A stretch of 64,000 nucleotides of DNA from assembly GCA_041600755.1 (NCBI GenBank), contig JBFIJL010000002.1:16850-80849 (forward strand). Direction: 5' to 3'. Made by a program: the position numbers and the translations under genes. Numbering within the stretch: position 1 is the first letter of the stretch; every line of letters begins with the position of its first letter. Source of the DNA: Candidatus Saccharimonadales bacterium (GTDB taxonomy: Bacteria > Patescibacteriota > Saccharimonadia > Saccharimonadales > JAXHNE01). A model generated the notes under the pieces. It had not been told where the DNA came from. It did no database searches and was given only the letters and a program-made list of their open reading frames with translations. Of this stretch, positions 9,452-57,997 are shown one piece after another.

Positions 9452-10659
9452 TAGACGTCAAATCCTTTCTGGGTTAACCGAAACTTCAGGTCATGATAGG
9501 CATTCATAAATGTAATATGAGCCTGATAAGGAGTTTCATAGGGGCTGAAATAAGCATGAATATCACCGTCGCTAAACCACTTGGTGCACATATAGTAAAA
9601 ATGATCAGACGTCTGAAGTTTTCGCCAGTCCTCAATAAGCGCCAGATCTTCTGATTTGAGTATTGGGGTTTCAAGTTCATAAAGTGCCCGAATTGCTTCA
9701 TGTTGCATCGGGTTGCCAAGCCAAGCGCTTAGGTCGCGCTCTGTATCTGCCCAGGTTGTAGTGTAGGGCGTATCAACTTCATCTTTTACTTCATGGGTAT
9801 CTGCAGCCTCGCTTACAGTCATAAATTGATGTTCTGGATCTTGGAGCCAAGTTGCAGGTAGATGCCTTAGAAAGTCAAAGATACCGCTTTCTGACCATTG
9901 ATGCTCACCAAATGTTTCATAGTCCATAAACAAGTTGAATATTTCGGCATCTGGAGTTTCATTTAGCCAATGTGTGTACTTGTCGGCAGTTAGTGGCCAC
10001 TGCTCCCAGGCTTGATTGCCAAACCTAAAGGCGATGTCGTCGCTAAGTTTATAGTTTTTCATGAGCAGCTTTACGTTATGAGTGTGTGTTGGTTTATATA
10101 CATAATTTGGACTTCGCCAGCCAAGAATTGGATCCCACCCCTCGGCTAGGATTGCTTTGTACCCAGCCCGATCAGCCCATACAGCCAGGTCGTTGTTGTA
10201 GCTAAGCTCGGTATTGCGAAATGCTGTTGGAGTTTGCCCAAACAATTCTTCGATTTTTTCTTTATGCATACGAACCTGCATTTCAAATTCAAACTGAGAA
10301 TAGAAAAACGCAAGGCTATGATGGTATGTTTCGCCAACAAACTCAACGCGACCGGTGCGTGCCAAGTCTTGGAACGAGTGAAGTGATTTTGGAGACCAAG
10401 CCTGCATTTGTTCAAGAACCGTTCCAGTCATTGACAGGCTGATTTTGAATCCTGGGTGCTGATCGAGTAATTGTTTGAGGACTTTGTTAGTGGCTAAATA
10501 TGATTTCTCTGCAACTTTGTGCAGAATCTGCTCGTTTGAGCGTCGGTCGTCATACGGTGCATCAAAATAATCATGATGATTTCCGGCATCAAAAATAGTG
10601 TAGTCACGAACTCGATATGGCTGGTGCACGTGCATATAGAGGACTATCGAGCGCTTCAT
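9451..10659 (-). CDS. Glycoside hydrolase family 57 (alpha-amylase/glucanotransferase-like)
   Basis: N-terminal LYMHVHQPYRV and MDYETFGEHQW motifs are typical of GH57. It shares one base with the GH15 start. Confidence 0.85.
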   Translation of the reverse strand: MKRSIVLYMHVHQPYRVRDYTIFDAGNHHDYFDAPYDDRRSNEQILHKVAEKSYLATNKVLKQLLDQHPGFKISLSMTGTVLEQMQAWSPKSLHSFQDLARTGRVEFVGETYHHSLAFFYSQFEFEMQVRMHKEKIEELFGQTPTAFRNTELSYNNDLAVWADRAGYKAILAEGWDPILGWRSPNYVYKPTHTHNVKLLMKNYKLSDDIAFRFGNQAWEQWPLTADKYTHWLNETPDAEIFNLFMDYETFGEHQWSESGIFDFLRHLPATWLQDPEHQFMTVSEAADTHEVKDEVDTPYTTTWADTERDLSAWLGNPMQHEAIRALYELETPILKSEDLALIEDWRKLQTSDHFYYMCTKWFSDGDIHAYFSPYETPYQAHITFMNAYHDLKFRLTQKGFDV

Positions 10660-11861
10660 CGTGCCAACTCCACATGTCGGTTGTAATGCGCAAATAGGGC
10701 ATCTGCAGCGGTCGACCAGCTCAGCCGGTTGTACTCTGTTAGCGAATTTGCGTGCAATTCGTCACGCAAGGCGTCACTACGCACAACGGCAGTAATCTGG
10801 TTAGCCATTTGATCAATATCCCAAAAGTCTACCTTTAGACAATTAGTAATTACCTCAGACACACCTGATTGTTTGCTGATGAGTGCTGGCGTTCCGTAAC
10901 CAATTGCCTCAAGTGGTGTAAGTCCGAAAGGTTCTGATAGTGACGGCATAACGAATAGATCTGCAATAGTGTAGGCATCTCGCCATCTTTTGCCTCGTTG
11001 GAAGCCAGTAAAAATAACGTTACGGCTAATTCCAAGTGCAGCCGCCTGTTCTAGAAGTTCATACTCAAGCTCACCACTCCCGACTATCAAAAATATCGTC
11101 TTTGGTTCTCGATCGATTACGTGCTTAGCAGCCTGCATGAGATTGCTAAGGCCTTTCTGTACTGTAAGGCGACCAATGTTCACAATAACTTTATAGCCTC
11201 GTTTTTTCATGGCTTCTAAGTATGCGTAAGATGTTTCGTCTTTACTTGATTCAATGGATTTATGGTCAATGCTGTTATGCACCACAGAAATCATGTTTGC
11301 AGGAATATTGTAATCCCTCATGATGGCGCGCTTAGTGTGCTCGCTTACTGCGATCACCTGATCAGCAAGCAGCAGGGAGGTGCGTTCAATTTCGTGAACG
11401 AATGGATTTCCTTTGCCGCCACCGGCACGGTCAGATTCAACAGAGTGGACATGCAACAGGAGAGGCTTCCCCGATCTTTCACGAGCGCGCAGTGCAGCTC
11501 TGAAGGTGAGCCAGTCATGAGCATGAATGACGTCAAAGCTCGTACTATCTACGACGCTGTCAATCGACTCCTCGTATGCTTGATGAAAGTCCATTAGACC
11601 CTTCCACACCACCTTCCCGTCCTCGTACACAAACTTATAGCTATCATAAGCTATGCCGGCTTTTATGACTGTTTGTACATCCACAGGCTGTGCTGGCGTA
11701 ATTTTCATAAAATCAACTTCTGGGTGTTCGGCATCATACGGCAGAATGAATTCAATTTCTGCACCAGAGTCAGCAAGAGACTTACAGAGGTGAAAGCACG
11801 CAACCCCTAGTCCACCACTGTTGTGTGGCGGCAATTCCCAACCCAGCATTAGTACTTTCAT
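10656..11861 (-). CDS. Glycogen-synthase-like glycosyltransferase (GT-B fold)
   Basis: MKVLMLGWELPPHNSGGLGVAC N-terminus and a C-terminal PSLSEPFGLTPLEAIGYGTP motif. 4-nt overlap with GH57. Confidence 0.8.
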   Translation of the reverse strand: MKVLMLGWELPPHNSGGLGVACFHLCKSLADSGAEIEFILPYDAEHPEVDFMKITPAQPVDVQTVIKAGIAYDSYKFVYEDGKVVWKGLMDFHQAYEESIDSVVDSTSFDVIHAHDWLTFRAALRARERSGKPLLLHVHSVESDRAGGGKGNPFVHEIERTSLLLADQVIAVSEHTKRAIMRDYNIPANMISVVHNSIDHKSIESSKDETSYAYLEAMKKRGYKVIVNIGRLTVQKGLSNLMQAAKHVIDREPKTIFLIVGSGELEYELLEQAAALGISRNVIFTGFQRGKRWRDAYTIADLFVMPSLSEPFGLTPLEAIGYGTPALISKQSGVSEVITNCLKVDFWDIDQMANQITAVVRSDALRDELHANSLTEYNRLSWSTAADALFAHYNRHVELAR

Positions 11862-12419: not shown

Positions 12420-13088
12420 ATGGTAATGTCCAAGATTATGCTCAATAAGCCAAGTCTGATTCTTCTTTACGGCTACCCAGGTGCCGGTAAAACCTATTTT
12501 GCACGACAAATTTGTGATGAAATCGCAGCAGCGCACATTCACGATGATAAAATACGTCATGAGATTTTTGAAAATCCACGCTATGACAAGCAAGAAAATC
12601 AAATACTGATGCAACTTATGCAATACATGACCGAAGAGTTCTTGAAAGCCGGTCTAAGTGTTGTCTTTGACACCAATACGATGCGAGTTGGACATAGAAG
12701 GATTATGCGTGATTTGGCGCGTAAGTTTAATGCCAAGCCTGTACAGCTTTGGTTTCAGATTGACCCCGACTCTGCATTTGCAAGAGCAAGCACACGAGAT
12801 CGTAGAAAGACGGATGACAAGTACGCAGTACAGTTAGACGAAAGAACTTTTTCTCAAATTGCAGGCTTCATGCAAAATCCAGGCCCCACAGAAGACTACA
12901 TCGTATTGAGTGGTAAACATACATTTGGAACACAATCAAAAATGTTCATGAAGCGTCTTTTTGACATGGGACTAATCTCACCGCAATCAGCCTCTGCTAA
13001 GGTTGCACGACCAGGATTGATGAACAACGTTCCAAGCCAGCTACACGGTCGCGTAGATGAGTCACGACGTAATATTCGCATTCGCTAA
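12420..13088 (+). CDS. P-loop kinase-like ATP-binding protein (AAA_33/zeta-toxin-like fold)
   Basis: Walker A motif LLYGYPGAGKTYFARQI. The start may instead be ATG 12426, which lies 8 nt after TATAAA. Confidence 0.65.
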   Translation: MVMSKIMLNKPSLILLYGYPGAGKTYFARQICDEIAAAHIHDDKIRHEIFENPRYDKQENQILMQLMQYMTEEFLKAGLSVVFDTNTMRVGHRRIMRDLARKFNAKPVQLWFQIDPDSAFARASTRDRRKTDDKYAVQLDERTFSQIAGFMQNPGPTEDYIVLSGKHTFGTQSKMFMKRLFDMGLISPQSASAKVARPGLMNNVPSQLHGRVDESRRNIRIR

Positions 13089-18472: not shown

Positions 18473-20248
18473 ATGAATCCTTTCGAAAATGAAGTAAAAG
18501 TGCCCCCATATTTGATAGAAAGAGCTGAGCGACGACGAGCATTACTTTCAGAGGCAACTGCCAATGAGGAGCAAGACCCTAAGAACACGTTGCACGCAAC
18601 GCTAGCCCTTAGTCGTGAGATGGCTACTAATGGCGTGTGCTCTATGCTTACGCTCGAAGCAATTAATGATGTTCATCAGAATGCAACCGGCAAAACAGAA
18701 AAACTGGCAGTAACCACGCTGGATACAGGTGTCTCCGAAATTGTAAATGCACAAGCGTTTGAACCGACAGCCCGAATTAAAGATGGGTGGGTCGAAGGTG
18801 TCTTGGTTGCAAATCACATTGACGAAGCAACTTCGCAGTTGTTTTTTAAGTTTGACTATGGAAGTAAAGCAATACTCCTTTGGCAGTTAACAGAGAATGA
18901 CCCAAAAACAGGTAGATGCAGTGAAAGTTGGTTTTTGCCGGCGTCACAATCTCACGAAATTGACTACAGCTTAGTAATGACCCCAATGGACGAAGCACGA
19001 CCTGCTTCAGCTGAAGAATTGGTTAGTGAAAAGCCAATGACAAACGCTGTTGTTCTAAAGCAGCTTATAGAATGTCTCAACGGTCGAAACAATAACTTAG
19101 GCGAGCTTATTAAACTAAAAGAGTTACTTGGCGAAACAAAGAACATCATACAACCTGAACTACACACATACTCAGAGGTTGACGATCCTCTTGTGCGGCA
19201 TCTGGGTAAAATCTCTGGATTGGCGGCACTGGCGGAAACTGCCGTTACTAAATCCCATAAGTTTAATGACGAAACTTCAATTTCATTAGAGTTTAGTCCC
19301 GAGGGAAGGGTGGATGTTTCGGCTACGCATCATGACCTTGGCAAAAATGGGTTAAGCACTTCTATGGGTAGTATCGTGCTAAGAGGGCAGCAATTGCTGG
19401 GAGAGTACGGTGGAGTCGAAGCACCAGAGCCAATAGAGCTTGCAAGGGCAGCGCTTGAAATTCCAGAAATTATTGTAGATGAGCAGCTTCAGCAGTTAAT
19501 TCAAGAGGAAATAAGGGATGGGGAAGAATTAGAAATTGTTGATTTTAATATTATAAAACACATTCGCGAATATCGCCGTCGCTTGAATGGCTGGACGATG
19601 CAGGATAGTACAAATTCTGCTGAATATAACGAAGCAGGTGCATATAGACCAGGTGATCCAATTATTGATATAGGGTCGGTTGACTTCCGGTCTTTAAGAT
19701 ATGGAGGGAGAGAGGAAGTTTTTCAAAATGCAATGGGCTTGAAGGCAGAGGTGTATTTAGGGAGATATAATCAAGTCTTCACAGGCGCTTCATACCTATA
19801 TGAATGCACAGTGATTGGCGGTGCTGAAGCATTCTATAATTCCAGATACATTCTCAGAAGTTGTCATAAGCCATCTCAAGCTTCCTTGTTCTCAGGAAGC
19901 TTTCAAAGCGCAAACTACATATCTGAGTGCATAGTTGATGGTGCGACAAGTGCATTTAATAACGCAAAACAAGTAGTAGATTCTCTTGCGGTTGATTGCA
20001 GCAGCGCATTTAGCGAAGCATCAACAACCCGTTGTGTTGCAATTGGATGCCGAAATTCCTTTTATGAGGCCAATGTAGATGAATGCACAGTGTATGACCC
20101 ACGCTTAATTGGCACAAATTTCATGACACACCTATGGAGTGATACGGGCATACCCTCGCTTGGTAGGGGCAGGTTGATTAAAAATCGGCTTACAGGCACG
20201 TATAACAACTACAGACGCAAAAAACAGGCGGCCAACAGTCGACAATAA
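18473..20248 (+). CDS. Hypothetical 591-aa protein with C-terminal Cys-containing repeats
   Basis: Long ORF with no signal peptide or TM segment. Residues ~417-542 form six or seven ~17-22-aa units of the form F-x2-A-x4-6-C-x-[VI]-x-G-x3-A. Confidence 0.7.
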   Translation: MNPFENEVKVPPYLIERAERRRALLSEATANEEQDPKNTLHATLALSREMATNGVCSMLTLEAINDVHQNATGKTEKLAVTTLDTGVSEIVNAQAFEPTARIKDGWVEGVLVANHIDEATSQLFFKFDYGSKAILLWQLTENDPKTGRCSESWFLPASQSHEIDYSLVMTPMDEARPASAEELVSEKPMTNAVVLKQLIECLNGRNNNLGELIKLKELLGETKNIIQPELHTYSEVDDPLVRHLGKISGLAALAETAVTKSHKFNDETSISLEFSPEGRVDVSATHHDLGKNGLSTSMGSIVLRGQQLLGEYGGVEAPEPIELARAALEIPEIIVDEQLQQLIQEEIRDGEELEIVDFNIIKHIREYRRRLNGWTMQDSTNSAEYNEAGAYRPGDPIIDIGSVDFRSLRYGGREEVFQNAMGLKAEVYLGRYNQVFTGASYLYECTVIGGAEAFYNSRYILRSCHKPSQASLFSGSFQSANYISECIVDGATSAFNNAKQVVDSLAVDCSSAFSEASTTRCVAIGCRNSFYEANVDECTVYDPRLIGTNFMTHLWSDTGIPSLGRGRLIKNRLTGTYNNYRRKKQAANSRQ

Positions 20249-20333
20249 GTAGTTTTTGTAGTACAATCTACAAGTTACGCACAAGATCACATGCTTCAGT
20301 GATTACAATGCAAATTTTAGGAGAATAAACACT

Positions 20334-20762
20334 ATGGCAAAGACTATTAAAGCCAATTTAAAGATGAAAATTCCAGCTGGTAAAGCTAGTGCAGGCCCAC
20401 CGGTTGGTAGCACACTTGGTCAGTATGGTGTAAACATGATGGATTTCGTTACACCATTCAACGATCGAACACGTGACATGGGTAATGTAACTGTCACTGC
20501 ACACATCACTATCTTTGATGACCGCAGCATGGACTTCCGTGTTGTTGGTGAGCCAACAGACGACAAGATCCGTCGAGTTCTTGGCATCAAAAAAGGTTCA
20601 GGTCGCCCAAATACGGAAAAGCTTGACCAGAAGCTAACTGATGCACAGCTCACAGAAATTGCTACTGAAAAAGCAGCAGACATGAACGCTGACGACGTTG
20701 AAGCAATTAAAAAGATGGTTGCTGGAACAGCTCGTTCAATGGGAATCGTAGTCGAAGGCTAA
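20334..20762 (+). CDS. rplK: 50S ribosomal protein L11
   Basis: IPAGKASAGPPVGSTLGQYGVNMMDFVTPFN is typical L11. An AGGAG RBS is present. Confidence 0.95.
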   Translation: MAKTIKANLKMKIPAGKASAGPPVGSTLGQYGVNMMDFVTPFNDRTRDMGNVTVTAHITIFDDRSMDFRVVGEPTDDKIRRVLGIKKGSGRPNTEKLDQKLTDAQLTEIATEKAADMNADDVEAIKKMVAGTARSMGIVVEG

Positions 20763-20764
20763 TC

Positions 20765-21040
20765 ATGTCCTCAGTAGAAACTGATATCATGATTGCCGCC
20801 AATGAAGGCATGAATAAATTGCGACATGTTGAGCCTGCAAGGATTGCAGTAAACTCTTTTTTAAGATATCAAGAAGAGCTTTATGAAGCTCAGCAAAAGA
20901 CCCATGCTGCAAGAGATAGAATGCAATCAGCGCTAGTGGGATTGAACAATCCTGTGCTCGCAAATAAGCTTCTACAGGATGCTGGAATTTTTGATTTCAA
21001 CAATGGTCATGGGATTTATGTTGGAGATGATCAAGAGTAA
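20765..21040 (+). CDS. Hypothetical protein (91 aa) between rplK and rplA
   Basis: ORF starts 2 nt after the rplK stop. No recognisable motif. Confidence 0.5.
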   Translation: MSSVETDIMIAANEGMNKLRHVEPARIAVNSFLRYQEELYEAQQKTHAARDRMQSALVGLNNPVLANKLLQDAGIFDFNNGHGIYVGDDQE

Positions 21041-21087: not shown

Positions 21088-22071
21088 ATGACTATGGCAA
21101 AAGCTGACGTATTAAAACAAGCACAAGACCTCGGACTTGATGTAAACGCAAAAATGACTATCGCTGATCTTCAGGCGGCGATTGACGCTGCACCAGCGGC
21201 AGACGTTGCAAAAGATGAAGCACCAGTAGCTACAGCAAAAGCTGGAAAGCGAAGTGCAAAGGGGATTAAAGAGGCCGAAGAAAAGCAAGCAAAGCTCGAG
21301 AAGCAAGCTGGAGACACAGATGATGAAGAGAGTGAAAAACCAAAAGCACCAGTTATTCCAACTCGTAGTAAGCTTGAGCGCCGCGGCAAGAAGTACAAAG
21401 AAGCTGCAAAGCTAGTTGAAGCTGATAAGCAATATGCACTAAAGGAAGCACTTGCACTCCTACCGAAGATTTCAACTGCTAGTTTTGATGCTACTGCAGA
21501 GATGCATGTCAAGCTAAACGTCGACCCAAAGCAAGCTGATCAAAATATCCGCGACACGATCGTACTGCCAGCTGGAACTGGAAACACTGTACGTGTAGCA
21601 GCATTTGTAGACACAGATGACGTAGCGGCAGCTAAAAAAGCTGGTGCAGACATCGCTGGTAGCGATGAATTCTTGCAGCAGCTCGACAAGGGTGAAGTTA
21701 ACTTTGACGTGCTTATCGCTAAGCCACAGCTTATGGGTAAGCTTGGTAAGTACGCACGCCTACTCGGACCAAAAGGACTAATGCCTAATCCAAAGAGCGG
21801 CACAGTAACAAATGACATCGAAAAAGCTATCTTAGAAGCAAAAGCTGGTCGAGTAGAGTACCGCGTTGACGAAGCTGGAATTGTCCACGTAGGATTCGGT
21901 AAGATTAGTTTTGGCAATGAGAAGTTAATGCAAAACGCGTTAGCACTCGTAAAGAGTCTACGAGGCAACAAGCCAGCAAGCATCAAGGGTGCTTTCATTG
22001 AAAGCGCATACGTCACCGCAACGATGGGGCCATCAGTTCCACTCGATGTGAACGAACTAATTGCAATGTAA
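21088..22071 (+). CDS. rplA: 50S ribosomal protein L1 with a ~95-aa N-terminal extension
   Basis: The canonical L1 core begins near GKKYKEAAKLVEADKQYALKEALALL and continues through GPKGLMPNPKSGTVT. The start may be ATG 21094. Confidence 0.9.
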   Translation: MTMAKADVLKQAQDLGLDVNAKMTIADLQAAIDAAPAADVAKDEAPVATAKAGKRSAKGIKEAEEKQAKLEKQAGDTDDEESEKPKAPVIPTRSKLERRGKKYKEAAKLVEADKQYALKEALALLPKISTASFDATAEMHVKLNVDPKQADQNIRDTIVLPAGTGNTVRVAAFVDTDDVAAAKKAGADIAGSDEFLQQLDKGEVNFDVLIAKPQLMGKLGKYARLLGPKGLMPNPKSGTVTNDIEKAILEAKAGRVEYRVDEAGIVHVGFGKISFGNEKLMQNALALVKSLRGNKPASIKGAFIESAYVTATMGPSVPLDVNELIAM

Positions 22072-22093
22072 TAGCTCGTGCTAGAATTGACCC

Positions 22094-22570
22094 ATGGGAC
22101 ACATCCATGAGCTCTATGACTTCACAACAAGCGCGTTCATCATAAATGATGGGCGCGTTTTGCTTCAACATCACAAAAAAATCAAAATGTGGCTACAGCC
22201 CGGTGGTCACGTTGAACTGGAAGAAGATCCAATCGAAGCGTTGTACCGGGAACTAGAAGAAGAGACGGGGCTGCTACCCGAAAACCTTCAGATTATTGAA
22301 TTGGTGAAAGATAAGCGTATTGAAAGCAGTGGAAGTAAGTTATTGCCAATCCCATTTGACTTTAATGTGCACTCTTTTAATAACAATCATAAGCATATCG
22401 ATCTTTGTTATTTAATGATTTCTAACACCAATGATGTGACGCTTGAAGTGGATAAAGCTCACGACATTCAGTGGTTTACGGTGGATCAAATGCGGGCATT
22501 GTTGGATGACAATCTAATTTATCAAGAGACAATTGATTTAGCAGAAATTGCGCTAAGACACGCAGCCTAA
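22094..22570 (+). CDS. NUDIX hydrolase
   Basis: Nudix box GGHVELEEDPIEALYRELEEETGL. Confidence 0.85.
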   Translation: MGHIHELYDFTTSAFIINDGRVLLQHHKKIKMWLQPGGHVELEEDPIEALYRELEEETGLLPENLQIIELVKDKRIESSGSKLLPIPFDFNVHSFNNNHKHIDLCYLMISNTNDVTLEVDKAHDIQWFTVDQMRALLDDNLIYQETIDLAEIALRHAA

Positions 22571-22588
22571 ACCTGCTACAATACGCTT

Positions 22589-23359
22589 ATGATTTTGTTA
22601 GGAATGACCGGCCCTATTAGCCATGGAAAAACCACGTTTGCTGAAGCCCTAGAAGAGCTTGAACCCAAATCTATACACCTTGAGTCAAGTCTTGTTATTG
22701 CTAGAGTTGCCAATGCTATGCATATGGCCCTCGAGCGAGTGCCAGATCCATATGACGTAGATCAGTTAAACAATTGGATTCGTTGCCTTCCAAGGATTCT
22801 GAGCGAAACTGTGCACACTGAGGCAACATTTGACCAGCTTAGACTTGATCAGGCGAGCATAGAGCGTCACCCTGTTGAGTATCAAAAACTTATAATTCAC
22901 GTTGAGCAACTCCGCAAGGACCCGAGTCTTGCTAGGCAGGCCATCACCATAGACAACAAAGAAACCTACAGACCGTTCCTGCAGTGGCTTGGTGGCTATC
23001 TAGTGCATAGAATAGAACCTGGTATTTGGTTCAACGAAATAATCCGTATGGTCTACGATGCAGAATCAACTGGCAGTAAACTGTGTATTGTTGGCGGTTT
23101 GAGATATCCTAACGATGCGGCAACTATTCGTCATGCTGGCGGACAAATTGTAAAAGTTTACCGCCCGGGGCATTTACAAAATGACATGCTAGATCCAACT
23201 GAACGCGAACGTGACAACATTCCTGTGGACTGCACCATTATGAGCAACGGCACGGTTGAGGACGTAAAGGCTTGTGCTGCACACGTTCTTGACGATATTC
23301 GCAACAATCGACTTTCAACCTTGTATCAAACCAAACGTGAAAGTGAAGTGCAGGCTTAG
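22589..23359 (+). CDS. P-loop NTPase, deoxynucleotide-monophosphate-kinase-like
   Basis: Walker A motif GMTGPISHGKTT. The later GGLRYPNDAATIRHAGGQIVKVYRP resembles dNMP-kinase family blocks. Assignment is tentative. Confidence 0.5.
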   Translation: MILLGMTGPISHGKTTFAEALEELEPKSIHLESSLVIARVANAMHMALERVPDPYDVDQLNNWIRCLPRILSETVHTEATFDQLRLDQASIERHPVEYQKLIIHVEQLRKDPSLARQAITIDNKETYRPFLQWLGGYLVHRIEPGIWFNEIIRMVYDAESTGSKLCIVGGLRYPNDAATIRHAGGQIVKVYRPGHLQNDMLDPTERERDNIPVDCTIMSNGTVEDVKACAAHVLDDIRNNRLSTLYQTKRESEVQA

Positions 23360-23362
23360 GCA

Positions 23363-23791
23363 ATGACTGCTAATCGCTCGCGCAAACAAGTTAAGTCTGC
23401 CCACAAGATTCTACCGCAATCCAGCACTGGCTGCCCTTTTTGTAATGTGCACTCATCCGGACAGGATAAGGTTCAAGAAACCAAGCACTTCTTTGTGATT
23501 AAGAATATTCTTCCCTACGACTTATGGGATCACCAAAAGATCAATGACCATCTAATGATCGTTCCGAAAGAACACACAGAACATCTGGGCTCAATTGGCT
23601 CATCTGCGGCTATAGAATATATCGAATTAATAGATAAATATGAAAAACTTGGTTACGATTTGTATGCGCGTTCACCGTTGTCCCAAATGAAATCAGTGCG
23701 ACACCAACATACCCACTTACTAAAGCCACACGGTCGAAGACGAAGATTTGTTTTCTATTTACGCAAACCTTATATACGGTTTCACTTCTAA
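23363..23791 (+). CDS. HIT-family (histidine triad) protein
   Basis: HLMIVPKEH and the histidine triad RHQHTHLL. Confidence 0.7.
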   Translation: MTANRSRKQVKSAHKILPQSSTGCPFCNVHSSGQDKVQETKHFFVIKNILPYDLWDHQKINDHLMIVPKEHTEHLGSIGSSAAIEYIELIDKYEKLGYDLYARSPLSQMKSVRHQHTHLLKPHGRRRRFVFYLRKPYIRFHF

Positions 23792-23895
23792 GCGGAAGCG
23801 TTTTAAATAATATTACAACGTTTTACGCAAAATTATACTTGCTCAATACTCGCTCCTGCCACTACACTGGTACATAGAAATGCGGAGGAGGCATC

Positions 23896-24609
23896 TTGGG
23901 AGTTTTTAGTAATATTCAAATACGTGAAGCAATCGAATCCGGACATATCGTTTGCACTCCGTTTAACCCAAAGCATATTGCTCATGCCAGTCTTGATGTA
24001 ACTCTTGGCTACTATTATTATCGAACAGGACAGGCCAAACGAGGTTACGTTTATAATCCATTCAGTGAAGCCGATACCAAACGCTATTTTGGCGAGGCTC
24101 AACAAGCAGTGTTGCATCGTGACTGGTGTGATGCAAATGGCGTGCAGTTACTCGAGAATATTCCTGCCGATCATCCCGTCATTCCTCTTCGACCTGGAGA
24201 GCGAATCTTGGCGCATACGCATGAATTCTTCGGCATTAAGCCACCGGGAGCCTACCAAGTAAAAGCTCGTTCTAGCTGGGGTCGGAATGGTGTTGCCGTG
24301 TGTTTTGATGCTGGCTGGGTTGATCCTGGATACATCAATAGACTTACTCTGGAAATCTATAACTTGAACGAGCACGAAACAGTACTAATCCCTGTTGGTG
24401 AACGGATCGCTCAGGCGGTTTTTCTTGAAACAGGTGAAGTAGAGGGAAGCTACGGCAAAGGACGCGATGGCGGATTTAGCGGTAAATATCAGCAAGGCGA
24501 TGATCTTGACGATATAATCGCCAGCTGGCGGCCGGAGGCCATGTTGCCACGTGCCTACAAAGACGGTCGGATTCTACCAAGTGAGATCCAAGGTTTAAAA
24601 GCCCGATGA
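23896..24609 (+). CDS. dcd: dCTP deaminase family protein with a C-terminal extension
   Basis: TTG start 7 nt after GGAGGAGG. IQIREAIESGHIV...ASLDVTLG and the trimeric dUTPase-like core GWVDPGY..LTLEI.N resemble Dcd. Confidence 0.8.
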   Translation: MGVFSNIQIREAIESGHIVCTPFNPKHIAHASLDVTLGYYYYRTGQAKRGYVYNPFSEADTKRYFGEAQQAVLHRDWCDANGVQLLENIPADHPVIPLRPGERILAHTHEFFGIKPPGAYQVKARSSWGRNGVAVCFDAGWVDPGYINRLTLEIYNLNEHETVLIPVGERIAQAVFLETGEVEGSYGKGRDGGFSGKYQQGDDLDDIIASWRPEAMLPRAYKDGRILPSEIQGLKAR

Positions 24610-26921
24610 TCGATCAGACTCAGCAAGGGGTCTTTTTTGTAATCGAGGGAACCGATGGTTCTGGAAAGGGTACGCAGTTCGCCAAGCTAAGCGAGCGACT
24701 CGCTTCAGAAGGTTACGATGTCGCTACTTTTGATTTTCCTCAATATGATCAACCGTCGAGCTATTTTGTGCAAAAATATCTAAACGGTAAATACGGTACC
24801 TCTGAAGAAGTTGGCCCATATACTGGATCTTTGTTTTACGCACTAGATAGATACGAAGCGAGTTTTAAAATTCGAGAAGCATTGAGTGCTGGAAAAGTGG
24901 TGCTTGCAAATAGATTCACTGGGTCAAATATGGCTCATCAAGGGACTAAATTTGACCACAGCGAGGAAAGAAGAGGCTATTTTATATGGCTAGATAACCT
25001 CGAATTCCAAATGTTAAATATTCCGAGACCTACGCAAAGCTACGTTTTACGTGTGCCGGCTACAATAGCCCAGAAGCTAGTAGATCAAAAAGATACTCGC
25101 AGTTACACTGACAAAAAGCGTGACATTCATGAGGCTGACCTGAAGCACATGGAAAAGTCTGTGCAAGTTTACGACGAACTTTGTGGCTTATTCCCTAAGG
25201 ACTTCAAGTCAATCGATTGTGTGCGCAACGACAGACTTCTCTCTATAGACCAAATTCATGAGCAGCTGTACTCGACTATTAGATCGAATCTTCCTAAGCC
25301 AAACCTCAAAAAGGAGCAAACTGTGTCTAAGAAAAATACCAATGAGTATCTTGCAAAAGACGAAGCTGGCTACAGTATCACACCTAAGGGCGAGGCATTT
25401 CTGGATAGCGCAGTCACCAGCACCACAGACAACGTCTACGCATTCACAGAAGAGCTGGGGCCATTGACTATTGCTGCCGCTATGGCGCGCTTGTCGCGAC
25501 GTGGTGACGATATGCGCATTACAATACTTGACGAATTCGCTGCAGCTGCCGGAAAAGACGAGAAGCTCTTAAAGCGGGTAATAACAGCGTACGGCGACGA
25601 CTCTGTACAGCAGCTTGTTGGACAACACGTTGTCATAGAGGACGCCAGCAACTTACTGACCAAAAAACTTGAGTGGGGAAGGCTGGCTAGCTATCTTGAT
25701 CAATCAACGCGCTACATTTACTTTGACCAAAAGGATCGTAATGGAAAGTATAAATACTATACGCCACAGCACTTTGACTCAAAAACAACCAAAGTATACG
25801 AAACGGCTATGGACTCAATTTTTGATCAGTACTCTGCAATTGTGCGTGAGCTTACGGACTACGTTCGCAGCAACGACAAGACACCAATATCCGATCGAGA
25901 TATTGCCTGGAAGGGCGCTACACGTGCGCAAGCATGCGACGCAGCACGTAATCTACTGCCAGTAGCCACAAAATCTACAGTAGGAATCTATGCTTCTGGT
26001 CAAGCACTCGAGAGCTTGATTATGCATCTGCAAGGTGATGAACTTCCAGAGGCTCAGATTACAGGTGACAAACTTCTAATACATGCCCGAAAAGTCATCC
26101 CTACATTTCTAGAACGTGCCGACAAGCCTGATCGCGGTGGAGCAACAATTGCGTACAACGCCACCACGAAGTCAAATGTTGCAAAATTAGCCTACGACAA
26201 TCTTCCTGAACAGCACGCACCCGAATCCCCGGCTGTTGCACTCTCTTCATATTGGCCAAAAAACGAACTAGATCTTGTTCCTGACATACTATACGAACAC
26301 AGTTCGTTATCACTTCAGGCAATCCAGGAAGCTGTCGCAACCTGGCCAATAGCAAAAAAGTACGAAGTTTTTGAAGCCTTCATTGGTGAACGACTTAATC
26401 GGCGCCACAAACCAGGAAGAGCCCTTGAAAAAGCTCACTACAGCTGGGATTTGGTGTGCGACTACGGAATCTTCCGCGACTTACAGCGTCATAGAATTGT
26501 CGATGATCTTAACTGGCAGCAATTATCGCCACGGTTTGGCTATGAAACACCACAGCTCATTGAAGACGCGGGGCTCAGTGACGCTTACGACGCCTGTTTT
26601 GATGAGAGCCTCAAGCTTTACAGTTTTATGCAGTCTGCTGGATATGCACTTGAGGCACAGTACGCCACATTGCTTGGACATAAGATGCGCTGGAAGATCA
26701 CCTATAATGCCAGAGAGGCCTTCCACCTGCACGAGCTGCGCACCAGTCCACAAGGTCATCCCGGTTATCGAAAACTAGTATTAGAAATGCATGAGAAACT
26801 GAGCGAAGTTCACCCAGTACTTGGCGAAGCTATGAAGTTCGTAAACAAAGGCGAGGACGAAACGCTAACTAGACTGGCCGCAGAACGATACACGCAATTC
26901 AAACTTAATCAGTTGAAATAA
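24606..26921 (+). CDS. Fusion protein: thymidylate kinase (N-terminal) plus a double-length ThyX-like flavin-dependent thymidylate synthase (C-terminal)
   Basis: N-terminus FFVIEGTDGSGKGTQ...LANRF..SN.AHQ is Tmk-like. The C-terminal ~520 aa carries LDQSTRYIYF and FRDLQRHRIVD (ThyX RHR/S-x-RY-type motifs). ATGA overlap with dcd. Confidence 0.75.
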   Translation: MIDQTQQGVFFVIEGTDGSGKGTQFAKLSERLASEGYDVATFDFPQYDQPSSYFVQKYLNGKYGTSEEVGPYTGSLFYALDRYEASFKIREALSAGKVVLANRFTGSNMAHQGTKFDHSEERRGYFIWLDNLEFQMLNIPRPTQSYVLRVPATIAQKLVDQKDTRSYTDKKRDIHEADLKHMEKSVQVYDELCGLFPKDFKSIDCVRNDRLLSIDQIHEQLYSTIRSNLPKPNLKKEQTVSKKNTNEYLAKDEAGYSITPKGEAFLDSAVTSTTDNVYAFTEELGPLTIAAAMARLSRRGDDMRITILDEFAAAAGKDEKLLKRVITAYGDDSVQQLVGQHVVIEDASNLLTKKLEWGRLASYLDQSTRYIYFDQKDRNGKYKYYTPQHFDSKTTKVYETAMDSIFDQYSAIVRELTDYVRSNDKTPISDRDIAWKGATRAQACDAARNLLPVATKSTVGIYASGQALESLIMHLQGDELPEAQITGDKLLIHARKVIPTFLERADKPDRGGATIAYNATTKSNVAKLAYDNLPEQHAPESPAVALSSYWPKNELDLVPDILYEHSSLSLQAIQEAVATWPIAKKYEVFEAFIGERLNRRHKPGRALEKAHYSWDLVCDYGIFRDLQRHRIVDDLNWQQLSPRFGYETPQLIEDAGLSDAYDACFDESLKLYSFMQSAGYALEAQYATLLGHKMRWKITYNAREAFHLHELRTSPQGHPGYRKLVLEMHEKLSEVHPVLGEAMKFVNKGEDETLTRLAAERYTQFKLNQLK

Positions 26922-27147
26922 CCTTATCAGGATCATGGCCAGAAGTTTCATCTACATCTGAAGTGACAGCACCTTCATTCGTGAAGGTAGCGCCAAAAAT
27001 TTTTTTGTCCAAGTCTATTAACTCAGAAGCTGATGTGAAGGCCGCGGCCACAGCCTCCTCGCCAATGTCTTTGGCACGGCTTCGAAGTGAAGATATTTCT
27101 CTTGAAATCCTCTGGATATCATCCGGTATTCGTTCAAAAAATTCCAT
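26905..27147 (-). CDS. Hypothetical acidic protein (80 aa)
   Basis: ATG (MEFFERIP...) lies 1 nt after the stop of the upstream 120-aa ORF. No motif recognised. Confidence 0.4.
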   Translation of the reverse strand: MEFFERIPDDIQRISREISSLRSRAKDIGEEAVAAAFTSASELIDLDKKIFGATFTNEGAVTSDVDETSGHDPDKVISTD

Positions 27148-27148
27148 A

Positions 27149-27511
27149 CTAACTAGCCGCATCAATAAATGCTTCAGTGCTGTAAGAGATCTGAAAAGCA
27201 GTAGTTTTACCGTCCATCTCGTAACTCAATTCTTCGAAGTAAAGCTTTTTACCGTCACCGTAAACAATGTAGTCTGTCTCTATTTCCGAAATTCCTATCA
27301 TATCCAAGAATAGATCATGAGCAATATCGTTTACGCCAACCCCACGACCATTGCCATCATATCCAGATAAATTAATTGGAAAAACTGCAGAAAACCTATC
27401 TTCCTCGCCGCATTCGTACTGGCGCAGACTATCACGAAGTCTAGCAGCCATGTATTCAGCTGCTTTCTCAGTGTCATTTACTGGGTTTAGGTAAATTTCT
27501 GCTGTGCTCAT
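27149..27511 (-). CDS. Hypothetical protein (120 aa)
   Basis: GAGGA RBS 5 nt upstream of the ATG. No motif recognised. Confidence 0.55.
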   Translation of the reverse strand: MSTAEIYLNPVNDTEKAAEYMAARLRDSLRQYECGEEDRFSAVFPINLSGYDGNGRGVGVNDIAHDLFLDMIGISEIETDYIVYGDGKKLYFEELSYEMDGKTTAFQISYSTEAFIDAAS

Positions 27512-27523
27512 AATTCCTCATAA

Positions 27524-27556
27524 AAAAACCGAATCTCTTGCTCGAGTTCGGTTTTT
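27524..27556. terminator. Hairpin flanked by A7 and T5 runs; on the minus strand it abuts the RBS of the 120-aa ORF
   Basis: Plus-strand sequence is AAAAACCGAA(T)CTC-ttgctc-GAGTTCGGTTTTT. On the minus strand the hairpin is followed by TTTTTTT, then ATGAGGAATTATG. Confidence 0.6.
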
Positions 27557-27676
27557 GTTTCTTGTCTTGATTTATCTAACCGCTACGAGCATTATGCGCA
27601 CATCTTGATGTAGCCACCCATTAGGTAACTTCGCAAGATTACGAAAATGTGTTGCAGTAGGGTTTTCACAACTCCA

Positions 27677-27705
27677 ACTTTACGCTAGCACCCCATTATT
27701 GTCAA
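27677..27705 (-). promoter_or_regulatory. Candidate promoter driving the 120-aa/80-aa gene pair
   Basis: Minus strand reads TTGACA, 17-nt spacer, TAAAGT. The predicted TSS is near 27670, giving a ~159-nt leader. Confidence 0.45.
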
Positions 27706-27935
27706 CCAGCACAAACCTAAAGTTAGGCTGTCGCCCCCTGGCATTTGACAGCAAATCGGCTTTAATGTAATTATTTACACAATATGAGCTCTTACGCGTA
27801 CTTATCATATCTCCTCCTCAGCCTTCCAAGGCTGTGCTTCGATTCAGTTGAAGCCTAGGTCAATAGACCTGAAGACACAGCCGCACAAACAAAAGGGCTT
27901 CAGCTAGACAGTTACTTATATATAAGGAGATTATT

Positions 27936-28127
27936 ATGGGGCAATCTTGGGAAAATTGGCATGAAATTGAGCATGAAAGCATAGATAATTATATAAAGCA
28001 GGATGCACAGCAGCCTATTACAGGATCTTCAGAGCGGACGAATTCACAAGATACTGTAGAGAGCGTTGCTGCACTGGGCGCTGTTGCTTCTCAGACCGCT
28101 AATAGCTCGCTTGACACGAAATCTTAG
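27936..28127 (+). CDS. Hypothetical small acidic protein (63 aa)
   Basis: ATG lies 6 nt after TAAGGAGA. No motif recognised. Confidence 0.4.
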   Translation: MGQSWENWHEIEHESIDNYIKQDAQQPITGSSERTNSQDTVESVAALGAVASQTANSSLDTKS

Positions 28128-28138
28128 CGGCGTATTAT
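28111..28138 (+). promoter_or_regulatory. Strong sigma-70-type promoter
   Basis: TTGACA, 16-nt spacer, TATTAT. Confidence 0.55.
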
Positions 28139-28145
28139 TACAGGC

Positions 28146-28252
28146 ATGACTCATCAATCAATCATTATCGTGATTAAGGAAAACCCTCAACAGCGGGCGT
28201 GAGTTTGTAATTTGCAAAAAAATCATAGCGGCCCCGCACAAGGGGTCGTTTT
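28146..28252 (+). promoter_or_regulatory. Leader region: 18-codon Ile-rich ORF followed by a terminator-like hairpin
   Basis: An ATG at the predicted TSS encodes MTHQSIIIVIKENPQQRA. The hairpin CGGCCCC-gcacaa-GGGGTCG (28229-28248) is followed by TTTTAAATTT, just before the RBS of the next ORF. Confidence 0.3.
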
Positions 28253-28271
28253 AAATTTAAGGAGAGAATCT

Positions 28272-28463
28272 ATGAGCGCAACAACAAGAATGCATGGAAG
28301 AACTGAGGAGCTACGAGAGCCAAGCTCTATATCGCCAGTTGACAATTGGCTTGAGCCTGAGCCATTGTCGCATGAAGATCGTTTACTGATATTGGGGCAA
28401 CACTGCGTAGAGAAAGCGCAGGGCACAGGCACTAGCCCTCAAGATCTAGAGACAACTGATTGA
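28272..28463 (+). CDS. Hypothetical small protein (63 aa)
   Basis: ATG lies 7 nt after AAGGAGAG, and is internal to track ORF 28212..28463. No motif recognised. Confidence 0.4.
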   Translation: MSATTRMHGRTEELREPSSISPVDNWLEPEPLSHEDRLLILGQHCVEKAQGTGTSPQDLETTD

Positions 28464-28488
28464 CACACATAGCATATTTTGCTATTAT
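28460..28488 (+). promoter_or_regulatory. Promoter of the rplJ-rplL operon
   Basis: TTGACA, 17-nt spacer, TATTAT. Confidence 0.6.
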
Positions 28489-28495
28489 TTCATCT

Positions 28496-28603
28496 GTTAC
28501 CAAAGACAGCGACTGCAGAAATGCTTAATTTGTCGCCGAGGTGTACGAAACAATTATTTCGACACTTTATCTAGAGCCTTTTGGTAACAAAAAGGCTCTT
28601 TTT
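28496..28603 (+). promoter_or_regulatory. Structured rplJ leader with alternative helix/terminator pairing (L10-leader-like attenuator)
   Basis: GTTACCAAA (28496-28504) is complementary to TTTGGTAAC (28580-28588). That segment overlaps the terminator AGAGCCTTTT-ggtaaca-AAAAGGCTCT (28573-28599), which is followed by TTTT. Two internal hairpins lie between. Confidence 0.5.
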
Positions 28604-28674
28604 AGTTACTTGGCCCAGGTCGATCCAAGCAACACACATTAATCAACCTACTCGGAAACAAGAGGAAGATATAC

Positions 28675-29199
28675 ATGGCTTTAACCAAAGCAAAAAAACA
28701 AGAAGTAATCGCTGAAGTTTCAGGTCTTTTAAACGACTCAAAGCTTACTGTAGTTGCTGCCTACAAGGGCACACCAGTAAAGGCGATGCAGGCACTACGT
28801 AAAGCCGGAAAAGAAAACGGAACCTCACTTAAAGTAGTGAAGAACCGTCTTGTTATCCAGGCGCTGAAGGCAACCGACACATTCAAAGATGCAGATACAT
28901 CTGCACTTGAAGGAATGTTGCTTTACGCGTTTAACAACGAAGACGAAGTTGCTCCTGCGAAAACATTGGCTGAATTTGCAAAGAAGCAGCCAACACTCGA
29001 GTTCATTGGAGCCTACAACGCTGCTGGTACATTCATGCCAGCCGAGGACGTAAAAGCCCTCGCAAGCTTGCCAAGCAAGAATGATCTTATTGCGCAGGTT
29101 GTGGCAACACTACTTGGGCCGGTCAACGACATTACAAATGGTTTGTCGGGCAACCTACATGCACTGCTTGATGGCGTAGAAGCCAAAGCCACAGCTTAA
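28675..29199 (+). CDS. rplJ: 50S ribosomal protein L10
   Basis: MALTKAKKQEVIAEVSGLLNDSKLTVVAAYKGTPVKAMQALRK is typical L10. Confidence 0.95.
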   Translation: MALTKAKKQEVIAEVSGLLNDSKLTVVAAYKGTPVKAMQALRKAGKENGTSLKVVKNRLVIQALKATDTFKDADTSALEGMLLYAFNNEDEVAPAKTLAEFAKKQPTLEFIGAYNAAGTFMPAEDVKALASLPSKNDLIAQVVATLLGPVNDITNGLSGNLHALLDGVEAKATA

Positions 29200-29285
29200 G
29201 CTGGGGCATAGGTGATAGGTGATAGATAGAATCTTGCATCACCCATAATCGTTAAACAATTAACTATAAATCGGAGAATATTAAA

Positions 29286-29666
29286 ATGGCAGACGTAAAA
29301 AAATTAGCAGAAAGCCTAACTAAGCTTACTGTTTTGGAAGTAAACGAACTAAAGACAATCCTAAAAGACGAGTACGGCATTGAGCCTGCTGCTGCAGCTG
29401 TTGCTGTTGCTGGCCCAGCTGCTGGTGGCGACGACGCTGGTGCTGGTGACGAGAAGAGCGAATACGACGTTGTTCTTAAAGATCCAGGTTCTCAGAAGGT
29501 TGCTGTTATCAAGGCTGTTAAAGACATCACTGGTCTTGGTCTTGGTGAAGCAAAAGCAATTGTTGACGGTGCTCCAAAAGCAGTTGTTGAAAAAGTTGCT
29601 AAAGACGAAGCTGAAGAAGCTAAGAAAAAGCTTGAAGAAGCTGGTGCTTCAGTCGACCTCGTATAA
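29286..29666 (+). CDS. rplL: 50S ribosomal protein L7/L12
   Basis: [18 protein letters not shown], an Ala/Gly hinge, then [28 protein letters not shown]. Confidence 0.95.
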
Positions 29667-29847: not shown

Positions 29848-30360
29848 ATGGCGGAAGTACCAGAGAAACAAATAAAAAGACTGAAAGCTCTTTTGCAAGA
29901 ATCAGAGACATCTCTGGCTGCTGCAAAGGAACTTTTGTTGAGCCTTATTGGTGATGAGCCAGTTGCAGCAAGACTTGCTGGAGAAGATCAGCCACTTGGA
30001 AAAATTATTGAAGGCGTGTTTGACGGCCAAAACATGGTTGGTTCTGACGCCAAGACATACCCAGTTCCAGCTAACTACGCTAGTAAATCTAAGCTGGTTC
30101 AGGGTGACATCCTAAAGCTGACTATTTCTGATGACGGTTCATTCCTATATAAGCAGATTGGCCCAATTCCACGTAAGCAAGTGGTTGGAGAGCTTGTTCA
30201 AGAAAACGGACACTATATTGTAAAAGTAGGAGAACGGGAATTCCGAGTACTCCTTGCTAGCGTCACTTACTTCAAGGCTAAGCCTGGCGACCAAGTAAGC
30301 ATCAACATCCCAGAAGATGACACTCACGCCGAGTGGGCAGCGCTCGAAGCCGCACTCTAG
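29848..30360 (+). CDS. Hypothetical protein (170 aa)
   Basis: ORF with an N-terminal coiled-coil-like segment and a beta-rich C-terminus. No family recognised. Confidence 0.6.
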   Translation: MAEVPEKQIKRLKALLQESETSLAAAKELLLSLIGDEPVAARLAGEDQPLGKIIEGVFDGQNMVGSDAKTYPVPANYASKSKLVQGDILKLTISDDGSFLYKQIGPIPRKQVVGELVQENGHYIVKVGEREFRVLLASVTYFKAKPGDQVSINIPEDDTHAEWAALEAAL

Positions 30361-57890: not shown

Positions 57891-57997
57891 AAAATATCAA
57901 GAGTGCAGTTAGGGATCTAGCCCGAAGACCTGCCAGCAACCTGTCTGAAGAGATAAGGTGCTACGTCTAGCCCGCCAGGTGCGGGGAAGATGATTTT
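57891..57997 (+). promoter_or_regulatory. SAM-I (S-box) riboswitch aptamer
   Basis: ATCAAGAG...TTAGGGATCTAGCCCGAAGACC..GCCAGCAACC...AAGGTGCTACGTC...GAAGATGAT follows the S-box consensus blocks. It lies upstream of metK. Confidence 0.85.

Follow-up and report, generated by a model that had tools for sequence, protein, structure and literature searches.

What is made by a row of five nucleotide-handling genes that sits between two pairs of ribosomal-protein genes on a Saccharimonadales chromosome? The question is raised by a 64,000-nucleotide (nt) stretch of Candidatus Saccharimonadales bacterium (assembly GCA_041600755.1, contig JBFIJL010000002.1, positions 16,850-80,849 of the forward strand), which is called the window below and in whose own numbering all positions are given. 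The row encodes a Nudix hydrolase, a homolog of the deoxynucleoside monophosphate (dNMP) kinase of phage T4, a histidine-triad (HIT) protein, a deoxycytidine triphosphate (dCTP) deaminase (Dcd) and a fusion of thymidylate kinase (Tmk) with the thymidylate synthase ThyX. Saccharibacteria, like the rest of the Patescibacteria, grow on other bacteria and are unable to build nucleotides de novo, and the way in which they keep their deoxynucleoside triphosphate (dNTP) pools balanced belongs to their dependence on the host. The reading favored here, to which we give a probability of about three in four, is that the row is a housekeeping island of the Saccharimonadales chromosome for the supply of deoxythymidine triphosphate (dTTP), placed between rplK-rplA and rplJ-rplL and equipped with accessory genes that vary between lineages.

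The island would probably be read through from rplKA. Dcd would deaminate dCTP and most likely also release pyrophosphate, giving deoxyuridine monophosphate (dUMP) directly; the doubled ThyX part of the fusion would methylate dUMP to deoxythymidine monophosphate (dTMP) with flavin and methylene-folate, as family membership and motif conservation suggest; the N-terminal Tmk would phosphorylate dTMP to the diphosphate (dTDP); and the last step, to dTTP, would fall to a nucleoside-diphosphate kinase encoded at another place in the genome. The cellular T4-gp1-like kinase probably phosphorylates salvaged dNMPs, including deoxycytidine monophosphate (dCMP), on the way to dCTP for Dcd.

The conserved core between rplA and rplJ

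The five open reading frames (ORFs) are co-directional on the + strand and span 22094-26921. Together with the parts of the fusion, they are:

22094..22570, + strand: Nudix hydrolase, 158 residues (Pfam NUDIX, 2e-17)
22589..23359, + strand: T4-gp1-family dNMP kinase homolog, 256 residues (Pfam DNMK, PHROG 139, fold match)
23363..23791, + strand: Hint-type HIT protein, 142 residues (12-homolog profile against the PDB)
23896..24609, + strand: Dcd, 237 residues, TTG start (Pfam DCD, 1.4e-31)
24606..26921, + strand: Tmk-ThyX fusion, 771 residues (Thymidylate_kin, 3e-15; Thy1 in two stretches)
24606..25295, + strand: Tmk domain of the fusion, about residues 1-230 (NF005923, 1G3U, Foldseek)
25431..26195, + strand: ThyX repeat 1, about residues 276-530, borders approximate (TIGR02170, family profile)
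26238..26921, + strand: ThyX repeat 2, about residues 545-771 plus the stop codon (Pfam Thy1, family profile)

The first of these genes starts 22 nt after the end of rplA (22071), and within the row the first four genes are separated by 18, 3 and 104 nt, whereas dcd and the fusion gene overlap by 4 nt. The original prediction, made from the sequence of the window, had described five co-directional, tightly spaced genes with these identities, and this was confirmed by the ORFs and by Pfam, PHROG and PDB profile matches. It had also spoken of a five-gene module, a term that fits two of the genes. A scan of species-representative genomes found 230 that encode a relative of the fusion; the best 80 were taken with 10-kb flanks, and their content was determined by tblastn with the window proteins (80 loci) and, for the slot between rplA and dcd, by ORF clustering (72 loci), so that the gene inventories cover the 64-kb window of the source genome and 22-kb loci of the relatives. 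Both dcd and the fusion gene are present and adjacent in 80/80 loci, flanked in nearly all by rplA (detected in 73/80) and rplJ (69/80). The rplA-dcd interval runs from 84 to 4586 bp over the 72 loci and is shorter than 300 bp in 15 of them. It contains a dNMP kinase in 22 loci, a free-standing Tmk-family gene of ~214 residues (Pfam 4.6e-17; TIGR00041 72 bits) in 13, a minus-strand lysyl-phosphatidylglycerol synthase in 12, a HIT gene in nine and a Nudix gene in three, the remaining content being singletons. Only the contig of the window itself was found to carry the exact five-gene set; in L002 (L numbers denote loci of relatives), which is the nearest species, the Nudix and kinase genes are present without a HIT gene, and in other genomes HIT stands before the kinase, in the window after it. 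The island is a conserved two-gene core, dcd plus tmk-thyX, with interchangeable accessories.

The fusion itself occurs in more than 120 clusters at 90% identity, more than 3700 proteins are counted for it, and its close homologs carry the names Candidatus Saccharibacteria, Saccharimonadales or Patescibacteria. An assembly or frameshift artefact was considered and rejected on account of this recurrence, which includes the 80 species genomes.

Contigs that encode more distant tandem ThyX proteins all have them at the same rplA|rplJ site. In L083 the order is rplA-tmk-thyX, where tmk and thyX are unfused and share 8 nt; L085 has rplA-dcd-dut-tmk-thyX-rplJ, and L086 has rplA-dcd-tmk-thyX-glyA. 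Unfused tmk and thyX genes at the same site in distant relatives point to an origin of the fusion from adjacent, overlapping genes. The conversion of dCTP through dUMP and dTMP to dTDP, which the original prediction had placed at the center of the cluster, is borne out by the constant dcd/tmk-thyX adjacency and by these unfused dcd-(dut)-tmk-thyX-(glyA) arrangements. As regards their deaminases, the Dcd of L086 is of the window's long type (57% identity), and that of L085 is canonical (TIGR02274, 193 bits); at L085:2152-3195 it is immediately followed by a 142-residue Dut, upstream of the unfused tmk and thyX.

The Tmk-ThyX fusion and the deaminase

Residues 1-230 of the fusion are a thymidylate kinase by Pfam match (PF02223, 3e-15), P-loop, DRY motif and fold. 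The NCBIfam dTMP kinase model NF005923 matches with 1.2e-33 (116 bits vs an equivalog cut-off of 193), and the Mycobacterium tuberculosis thymidylate kinase 1G3U with 1e-16; Foldseek aligns the domain with many Tmk structures at target-normalised TM scores of 0.72-0.87, mostly 0.80-0.87. The P-loop EGTDGSGKGT and the DRY motif are invariant across 42 orthologs.

Known ThyX proteins are subunits of ~220-260 residues that form homotetramers. In the fusion, Pfam Thy1 (PF02511) matches with 6.1e-35 (121 bits vs a cut-off of 24.8) in two stretches and covers residues 591-738; TIGR02170 matches residues 313-500, with a score of 52.9 bits that falls short of the equivalog threshold (87.9). By the domain model, the C-terminal part is thus assigned to the ThyX family. 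Only a family profile of 44 members reached ThyX structures: repeat 1 aligns with residues 48-228 of M. tuberculosis ThyX (E 1.4e-13), and repeat 2 with chain positions 69-191 of Thermotoga maritima ThyX (E 4e-5). In the T. maritima numbering, which is consistent with the chain offsets of the profile alignment, repeat 1 keeps the equivalents of R80, S88, R90, Y91 and R147 (R359, S367, R369, Y370 and R448). In this repeat WGR stands where RHR would be and GDDS where GH.S would be, and equivalents of H53, N163/R165 and R174 are missing. Repeat 2 keeps the RHR, NAR and LR(174) equivalents and has Gln at the R147 position. The full ThyX set, made up of the motif RHRxxS...SxRY and the Arg and His residues that bind dUMP and FAD (R78, H79, R80, S88, R90, R147, R174), is present only when both repeats are combined, and GDDS, WGR, QSTRY, RHR, NAR, R712 and H718 are invariant in the 42 orthologs. 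The ThyX part therefore reads as an internal tandem duplication with complementary retention of catalytic residues. A direct hhalign comparison of repeat 1 with repeat 2 was not significant (probability 0.2%), and the argument for a duplication runs solely through each half's own ThyX match. As a dimer, the fusion would imitate the homotetramer of known ThyX enzymes, with a probably smaller number of equivalent active sites.

Tandem ThyX proteins constitute a large family: at 50% identity there are 3257 clusters, of which 633 match at E <= 1e-30. They occur as unfused forms of ~510-560 residues and as longer forms of ~720-800 residues in which the ThyX match begins at about residue 260; the sole longer form examined, P0341, has a Tmk N-terminus. 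The annotation names in use are 'thymidylate synthase ThyX' and 'thymidylate kinase/thymidylate synthase ThyX', and literature searches on a Tmk-ThyX fusion, on tandem ThyX and on Saccharibacteria thymidylate or dUTPase genes returned nothing relevant. Chlamydial ThyX, at ~530 residues, is presumably also a candidate for the tandem type.

P0341 is the fusion of L082 (L082:8001-10256), in which rplA is followed by thyA, folA, HIT, dCMP deaminase, a cytidylyltransferase-like gene and the Tmk-ThyX-like fusion. Its Tmk domain is 62% identical to that of the window, and the ThyX motifs are decayed: GDDS is GISQP, QSTRY is PRDSY, RHR is RSE, NAR is TAM and ELR is FQS. The ThyX part of L082 appears to be a pseudo-enzyme domain kept on an active kinase. 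Since the motifs are invariant in the lineage of the window but decayed in the thyA- and folA-bearing L082, the window ThyX is read as an active, canonical thymidylate synthase, and this single case is the best in-silico evidence for it. The decayed ThyX of a thyA-bearing lineage would be a natural experiment for ThyX enzymology, as would the tandem ThyX with complementary residue loss, which bears on the contributions of subunits to a composite active site.

The Dcd of the window matches PF22769, and the positions of its catalytic Ser, Arg, Asp and Glu align with those of solved enzymes (motifs RSSWGR, DPG and TLE), which assigns it to the dCTP deaminase/dUTPase superfamily. The N-terminus, from the TTG start, aligns residue for residue with the homolog of L086. 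Its best PDB matches are 4XJC of B. halodurans, which we take to be bifunctional (a literature search on it returned nothing relevant), Dcd:dut of M. tuberculosis (2QXX/2QLP) and the enzyme of M. jannaschii (1OGH, described by its depositors as bifunctional and dUMP-forming), with scores against bifunctional enzymes of 54, 47 and 33 bits. E. coli Dcd is not among the matches at E <= 1e-3, although E. coli Dut is. The protein belongs to a long (~230-residue) subfamily and would probably be a bifunctional, dUMP-forming enzyme. For M. tuberculosis Dcd:dut, bifunctionality is documented (PMC5519681).

Several results weigh against a housekeeping island for dTTP supply or against steps of it. The TIGR02274 score of Dcd, 87.7 bits, falls just below the cut-off of 92.8, and the case for a bifunctional enzyme is made from relative similarity. 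The ThyX part is very divergent, in that single-sequence PDB searches with each half reach no solved ThyX. The AlphaFold2 model of the fusion has a predicted local distance difference test (pLDDT) score of 71.5, with the active-site regions of repeat 2 below 50, and the Foldseek list for the whole-fusion model is filled by Tmk structures. In relatives, the rplA-dcd slot also holds unrelated genes (lysyl-phosphatidylglycerol synthase, Wzy), so that co-location is weak evidence for the accessory genes. Finally, co-transcription is deduced from spacing and consensus scans only.

Accessory genes and alternative readings

The second gene of the row encodes a P-loop protein (GPISHGKT) that matches Pfam DNMK (PF21448) with 8.4e-7 (29.2 bits vs a cut-off of 27.1) and PHROG 139 'dNMP kinase' with 8.3e-20 over residues 1-251. 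Its AlphaFold2 model has a pLDDT of 90, and the best PDB fold is T4 gp1 (1DEK; E 1e-5, TM 0.57-0.63), so that profile match, predicted fold and P-loop agree on a putative T4-type dNMP kinase. The homologs form 390 clusters annotated 'hypothetical', and those with organism names are Saccharibacteria; phage dNMP kinases, from actinophages and jumbo phages, match the C-terminal half alone, at ~30% identity. In the 22 slots that hold the gene it lies directly upstream of dcd, as it does in L088, and tblastn finds it in 23/80 loci. It never shares a slot with the second, free-standing Tmk-family gene (no overlap in L002-L081; hypergeometric P = 0.005, not corrected for phylogeny), which suggests that one functionally replaces the other, or else that their distribution reflects lineage. 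Saccharibacteria have been reported to be without de novo nucleotide synthesis (PMC7786006), and a dNMP salvage kinase would suit such an organism.

The HIT protein gives no Pfam match as a single sequence. A profile of 12 island homologs, searched against the PDB, finds Hint-type structures, with the adenosine 5'-monophosphoramidase 6IQ1 at 7e-10; the motifs CPFC and HQHTHLL supply C24, C27, H114, H116 and H118, invariant in the 12 homologs, and the homolog of L082 has a weak PF01230 match. With its triad, CxxC motif and profile match, the protein is assigned to the Hint branch of the HIT superfamily. In addition to the nine slots found by clustering (10/80 loci by tblastn), the gene occurs in the ThyA-type islands of L082 and L092.

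In the Nudix protein, which is assigned to PF00293, the box GHVELEEDPIEALYRELEEETGL (residues 37-59) fits GX5EX7REUXEEXGU at every position, as read from the sequence. The closest solved structure is 3F6A (3e-18), a record named just 'Hydrolase, NUDIX family', and the NCBIfam equivalogs, the best of which are RppH, MutT and NudG, all score far under their cut-offs. The family comprises 133 clusters at E <= 1e-10. By tblastn, the gene lies beside dcd, immediately upstream, in four of the 80 relatives (L002, L050, L074 and L078). Of four sampled homologs on long contigs, three lie in rplA-adjacent thymidylate islands: L089 and L090 have the order rplA-(folA)-Nudix-dcd-...-fusion, and in L092 the gene adjoins folA in a ThyA/dCMP-deaminase/HIT island beside rplA, while the homolog of L091 sits elsewhere in its genome, outside such an island. 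Because the family recurs in the island, though sporadically, a link of the Nudix protein to thymidylate metabolism is plausible, and a role in clearing deoxyuridine triphosphate (dUTP) is possible. As predicted nucleotide hydrolases repeatedly present in such islands, the Nudix and HIT proteins might serve in pool clean-up, for example of dUTP, which is a speculative assignment. A functional tie of all three accessory genes to deoxypyrimidine metabolism is likely.

A stronger role for the Nudix protein, also considered in the original prediction, assumes a monofunctional Dcd that converts dCTP to dUTP and a Nudix protein that replaces Dut as the dUTP pyrophosphatase, making dUMP and keeping uracil out of DNA. 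A search with the island Dut of L085 found no Dut homolog, neither in the window nor at the 80 loci of relatives, L085 itself having its Dut at the corresponding neighborhood position; the Nudix homologs immediately upstream of dcd in L002, L050, L074, L078, L089 and L090 are 44-58% identical, and the homolog beside folA in the ThyA-type island of L092 fits as well. A separate dUTP-clearing enzyme would be needed in any case, given that in mycobacteria the bifunctional enzyme is a poor sanitiser of dUTP and a true Dut is needed despite Dcd:dut (PMC5519681). However, the gene stands beside dcd in only those four of 80 relatives, all of which have the same Dcd type, and 133 family clusters compare with more than 3700 fusion proteins; since most relatives are without the gene, it would be no general solution for the lineage. 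Because the best scores of Dcd are to dUMP-forming bifunctional enzymes, the Nudix protein would also be unnecessary to explain the formation of dUMP. Moreover, its specificity cannot be read from the sequence, and a dut gene could lie outside the window. We regard this replacement of Dut as somewhat unlikely.

A bolder version of the dTTP island would make the fusion an obligate asymmetric machine. Repeat 1 would give the S88, R90 and R147 equivalents and repeat 2 the RHR and R174 equivalents, in a pseudo-tetramer of two fusions with only half the canonical active sites, and dTMP would be handed directly from the ThyX part to the attached kinase. The dNMP kinase, as an enzyme of broad specificity whose place a second Tmk-family kinase would take in other lineages, would lead host-derived dNMPs to each of the four dNTPs, leaving only a small part to ribonucleotide reduction, and Nudix would replace Dut. 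As a whole, this proposal is doubtful.

It could also be that a functional link joins only dcd and tmk-thyX, the genes for Nudix, dNMP kinase and HIT being unrelated housekeeping passengers of a recombination-permissive slot beside rplA. The wide range of slot lengths, the lipid and envelope genes and many unknown ORFs within it, the changed order of HIT and kinase, and a neighboring slot downstream of the fusion that is even more variable are what such a slot would produce. On the other hand, 47 of the 63 co-directional slot ORFs belong to four nucleotide-handling families, and kinase, Nudix and HIT recur in ThyX/Dcd-type as well as ThyA/dCMP-deaminase-type islands. The avoidance between the dNMP kinase and the second Tmk-family gene, with the reservation on phylogeny given above, and the spacing of only 3-22 nt between the genes speak in the same direction, and unrelated passengers are judged improbable. 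The second Tmk-family gene has a further consequence: the original prediction had counted a separate tmk elsewhere in the genome against the module, a test that does not discriminate because 13/72 relatives carry such a gene within the island itself.

The weakest alternative, raised in the original prediction, is that the cluster makes a hypermodified pyrimidine, like phage modules of dNMP kinase, pyrophosphatase and thymidylate-synthase homolog; a dNMP kinase from a family otherwise typical of phages and a ThyX part very divergent from every solved ThyX would suit it, but it is hardly credible for a cluster with a chromosomal, ribosomal housekeeping context and no phage context, conserved in 80/80 species, whose ancestral unfused versions sit with dut and glyA of the classical dTMP set, whose fused kinase has a bona fide Tmk fold, in which Pfam finds no ThyA homolog, transferase or glycosylase gene (phage hydroxymethylases are, to our knowledge, ThyA homologs), whose ThyX motifs decay in one thyA-bearing relative, L082, as expected if ThyX does the job of ThyA, and for whose ThyX part a mere 2 of 50,697 phage records give a match.

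Chromosomal setting and known systems

The flanks of the island are ribosomal on both sides:

20334..20762, + strand: rplK, ribosomal protein L11, upstream flank (Pfam Ribosomal_L11_N and Ribosomal_L11)
21088..22071, + strand: rplA, ribosomal protein L1, 327 residues (Pfam Ribosomal_L1)
26922..28481, no strand: hypervariable spacer from the island to the rplJ leader, with two small minus-strand ORFs
28482..28613, + strand: L10 leader RNA, the downstream boundary (Rfam RF00557, 63.8 bits vs a gathering score of 44)
28675..29666, + strand: rplJ and rplL, L10 and L7/L12, downstream flank (Pfam Ribosomal_L10 and Ribosomal_L12)

Upstream of the island, the order is secE, nusG, a 591-residue ORF, rplK, a 91-residue ORF and rplA; downstream, two small minus-strand ORFs and the L10 leader precede rplJ, rplL, a 170-residue ORF, dnaX, dnaB, recR and cysS. 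Elsewhere, too, the window has housekeeping content (rpoA C-terminus, L17, L13, S9, tRNA synthetases, tRNAs, glycosyltransferases). It is a fragment of a cellular chromosome, with a GC content of 41-47% and no break in composition. A phage or mobile-element origin was considered and rejected for this unremarkable composition and the housekeeping flanks.

A promoter-like site at 20239-20267, ahead of rplK, makes rplK the probable start of the transcription unit, and on the + strand the consensus scan found nothing convincing as a terminator between rplK and the end of the fusion gene. Ahead of rplJ lie promoter-like sites at 28111 and 28460 (11/12 matches) and the L10 leader, which contains an attenuator hairpin. 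Both scans run near background, with 33 sites found vs 22.6 expected for promoters and 18 vs 13.1 for terminators. Because of the tight spacing, the lack of a convincing terminator and the rplA-dcd intervals below 300 bp in 15/72 loci, a unit from rplK-rplA through the island, separate from rplJL, is plausible, and with it the single operon that the original prediction had proposed.

Several neighboring features deserve mention in their own right. The 591-residue ORF between nusG and rplK (18473-20248, +) gives no Pfam match, none of the 80 loci of relatives contains a homolog, and the ORF seems to be an insertion, specific to this lineage, among genes that are normally closely packed. The 91-residue ORF between rplK and rplA (20765-21040, +) has no Pfam match either; unrelated ORFs of 78-104 residues occupy this position in L088, L089 and L090. 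The L1 protein of the window (21088-22071) carries an Ala/Lys/Glu-rich N-terminal extension of ~100 residues, and L1 in relatives is also long (303-407 residues). In the downstream spacer, the two minus-strand ORFs (26905-27165 and 27149-27511) overlap and are unique to this contig; in relatives, the spacer measures 601-6013 bp, its 207 ORFs fall into 150 clusters, and its genes include an M20 peptidase, a threonine dehydratase and an HMGL-like enzyme, so that it varies more than the rplA-dcd slot. The 170-residue ORF directly after rplL (29848-30360, +) has no Pfam match and is found with 73-87% identity in 61/80 relatives, a conservation that equals or exceeds that of L10/L12. In the window, rplL is followed by dnaX and dnaB, not by rpoB and rpoC. 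Farther away lie an S-adenosylmethionine (SAM) riboswitch (RF00162, 58.6 bits; 57891-57996, +) upstream of an ORF at 58082-59203, a run of glycogen/starch-type genes (7517-11861, minus strand; GH15, GH57 and GT4/GT5 starch-synthase-like) in an otherwise minimal genome, and a 222-residue P-loop protein (12420-13088, +; AAA_33 1e-18, with a weaker Zeta_toxin match) that adjoins a YgjP-like metallopeptidase and would be another small putative kinase, outside the island.

With the housekeeping dTTP island as the preferred reading, its components can be set beside known systems. To the bifunctional Dcd:dut enzymes (1OGH, 2QLP/2QXX, 4XJC), the window Dcd is related by the common active-site pattern RSSxGRxG ... 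AGW(V/I)DPG(F/Y) ... TLE; compared with 1OGH, 2QLP and 4XJC, it has ~45 additional residues, with an insertion behind residue ~40 and an extension at the C-terminus, and it has no neighboring dut, whereas the canonical Dcd of L085 is paired with one. The mycobacterial thymidylate kinase (1G3U; NF005923) is the best sequence and fold match to residues 1-230 and shares the P-loop and DRY motif; unlike it, the window Tmk is covalently fused to ThyX, and some relatives have an additional free-standing Tmk-family gene. Both halves of the 500 C-terminal residues are Thy1 domains like ThyX of T. maritima (TM0449) and M. tuberculosis (Rv2754c; PF02511), although in the fusion two diverged repeats, neither with the full residue set, stand on one chain together with Tmk. 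T4 gp1 (1DEK; PF21448; PHROG 139) is akin to the window kinase by profile membership and as its best structural match; unlike gp1, the kinase is chromosomal in a cellular lineage, holds a fixed position before dcd and is only 14-15% identical. Phage nucleotide-hypermodification modules differ by their phage or mobile context and by ThyA-family hydroxymethylases or modifying transferases, which the cluster lacks.

The closest likeness is to the classical dTTP pathway (dcd, dut, thyX or thyA, tmk, glyA, folA), which has the same reaction sequence and of which relatives carry the full set at the locus; unlike the classical genes, those of the island stand in one cluster flanked by the rplKA and rplJL operons, with tmk and thyX joined in a fusion and with varying accessories. 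Saccharibacteria would thus keep a compact, positionally fixed thymidylate island beside ribosomal-protein operons, with accessory nucleotide enzymes (phage-type dNMP kinase, Nudix, HIT) moving in and out of it. The pathway is a textbook one and the known biochemistry stands, with the Tmk-(ThyX)2 fusion and the cellular T4-type dNMP kinase as variants of it rather than a new system.

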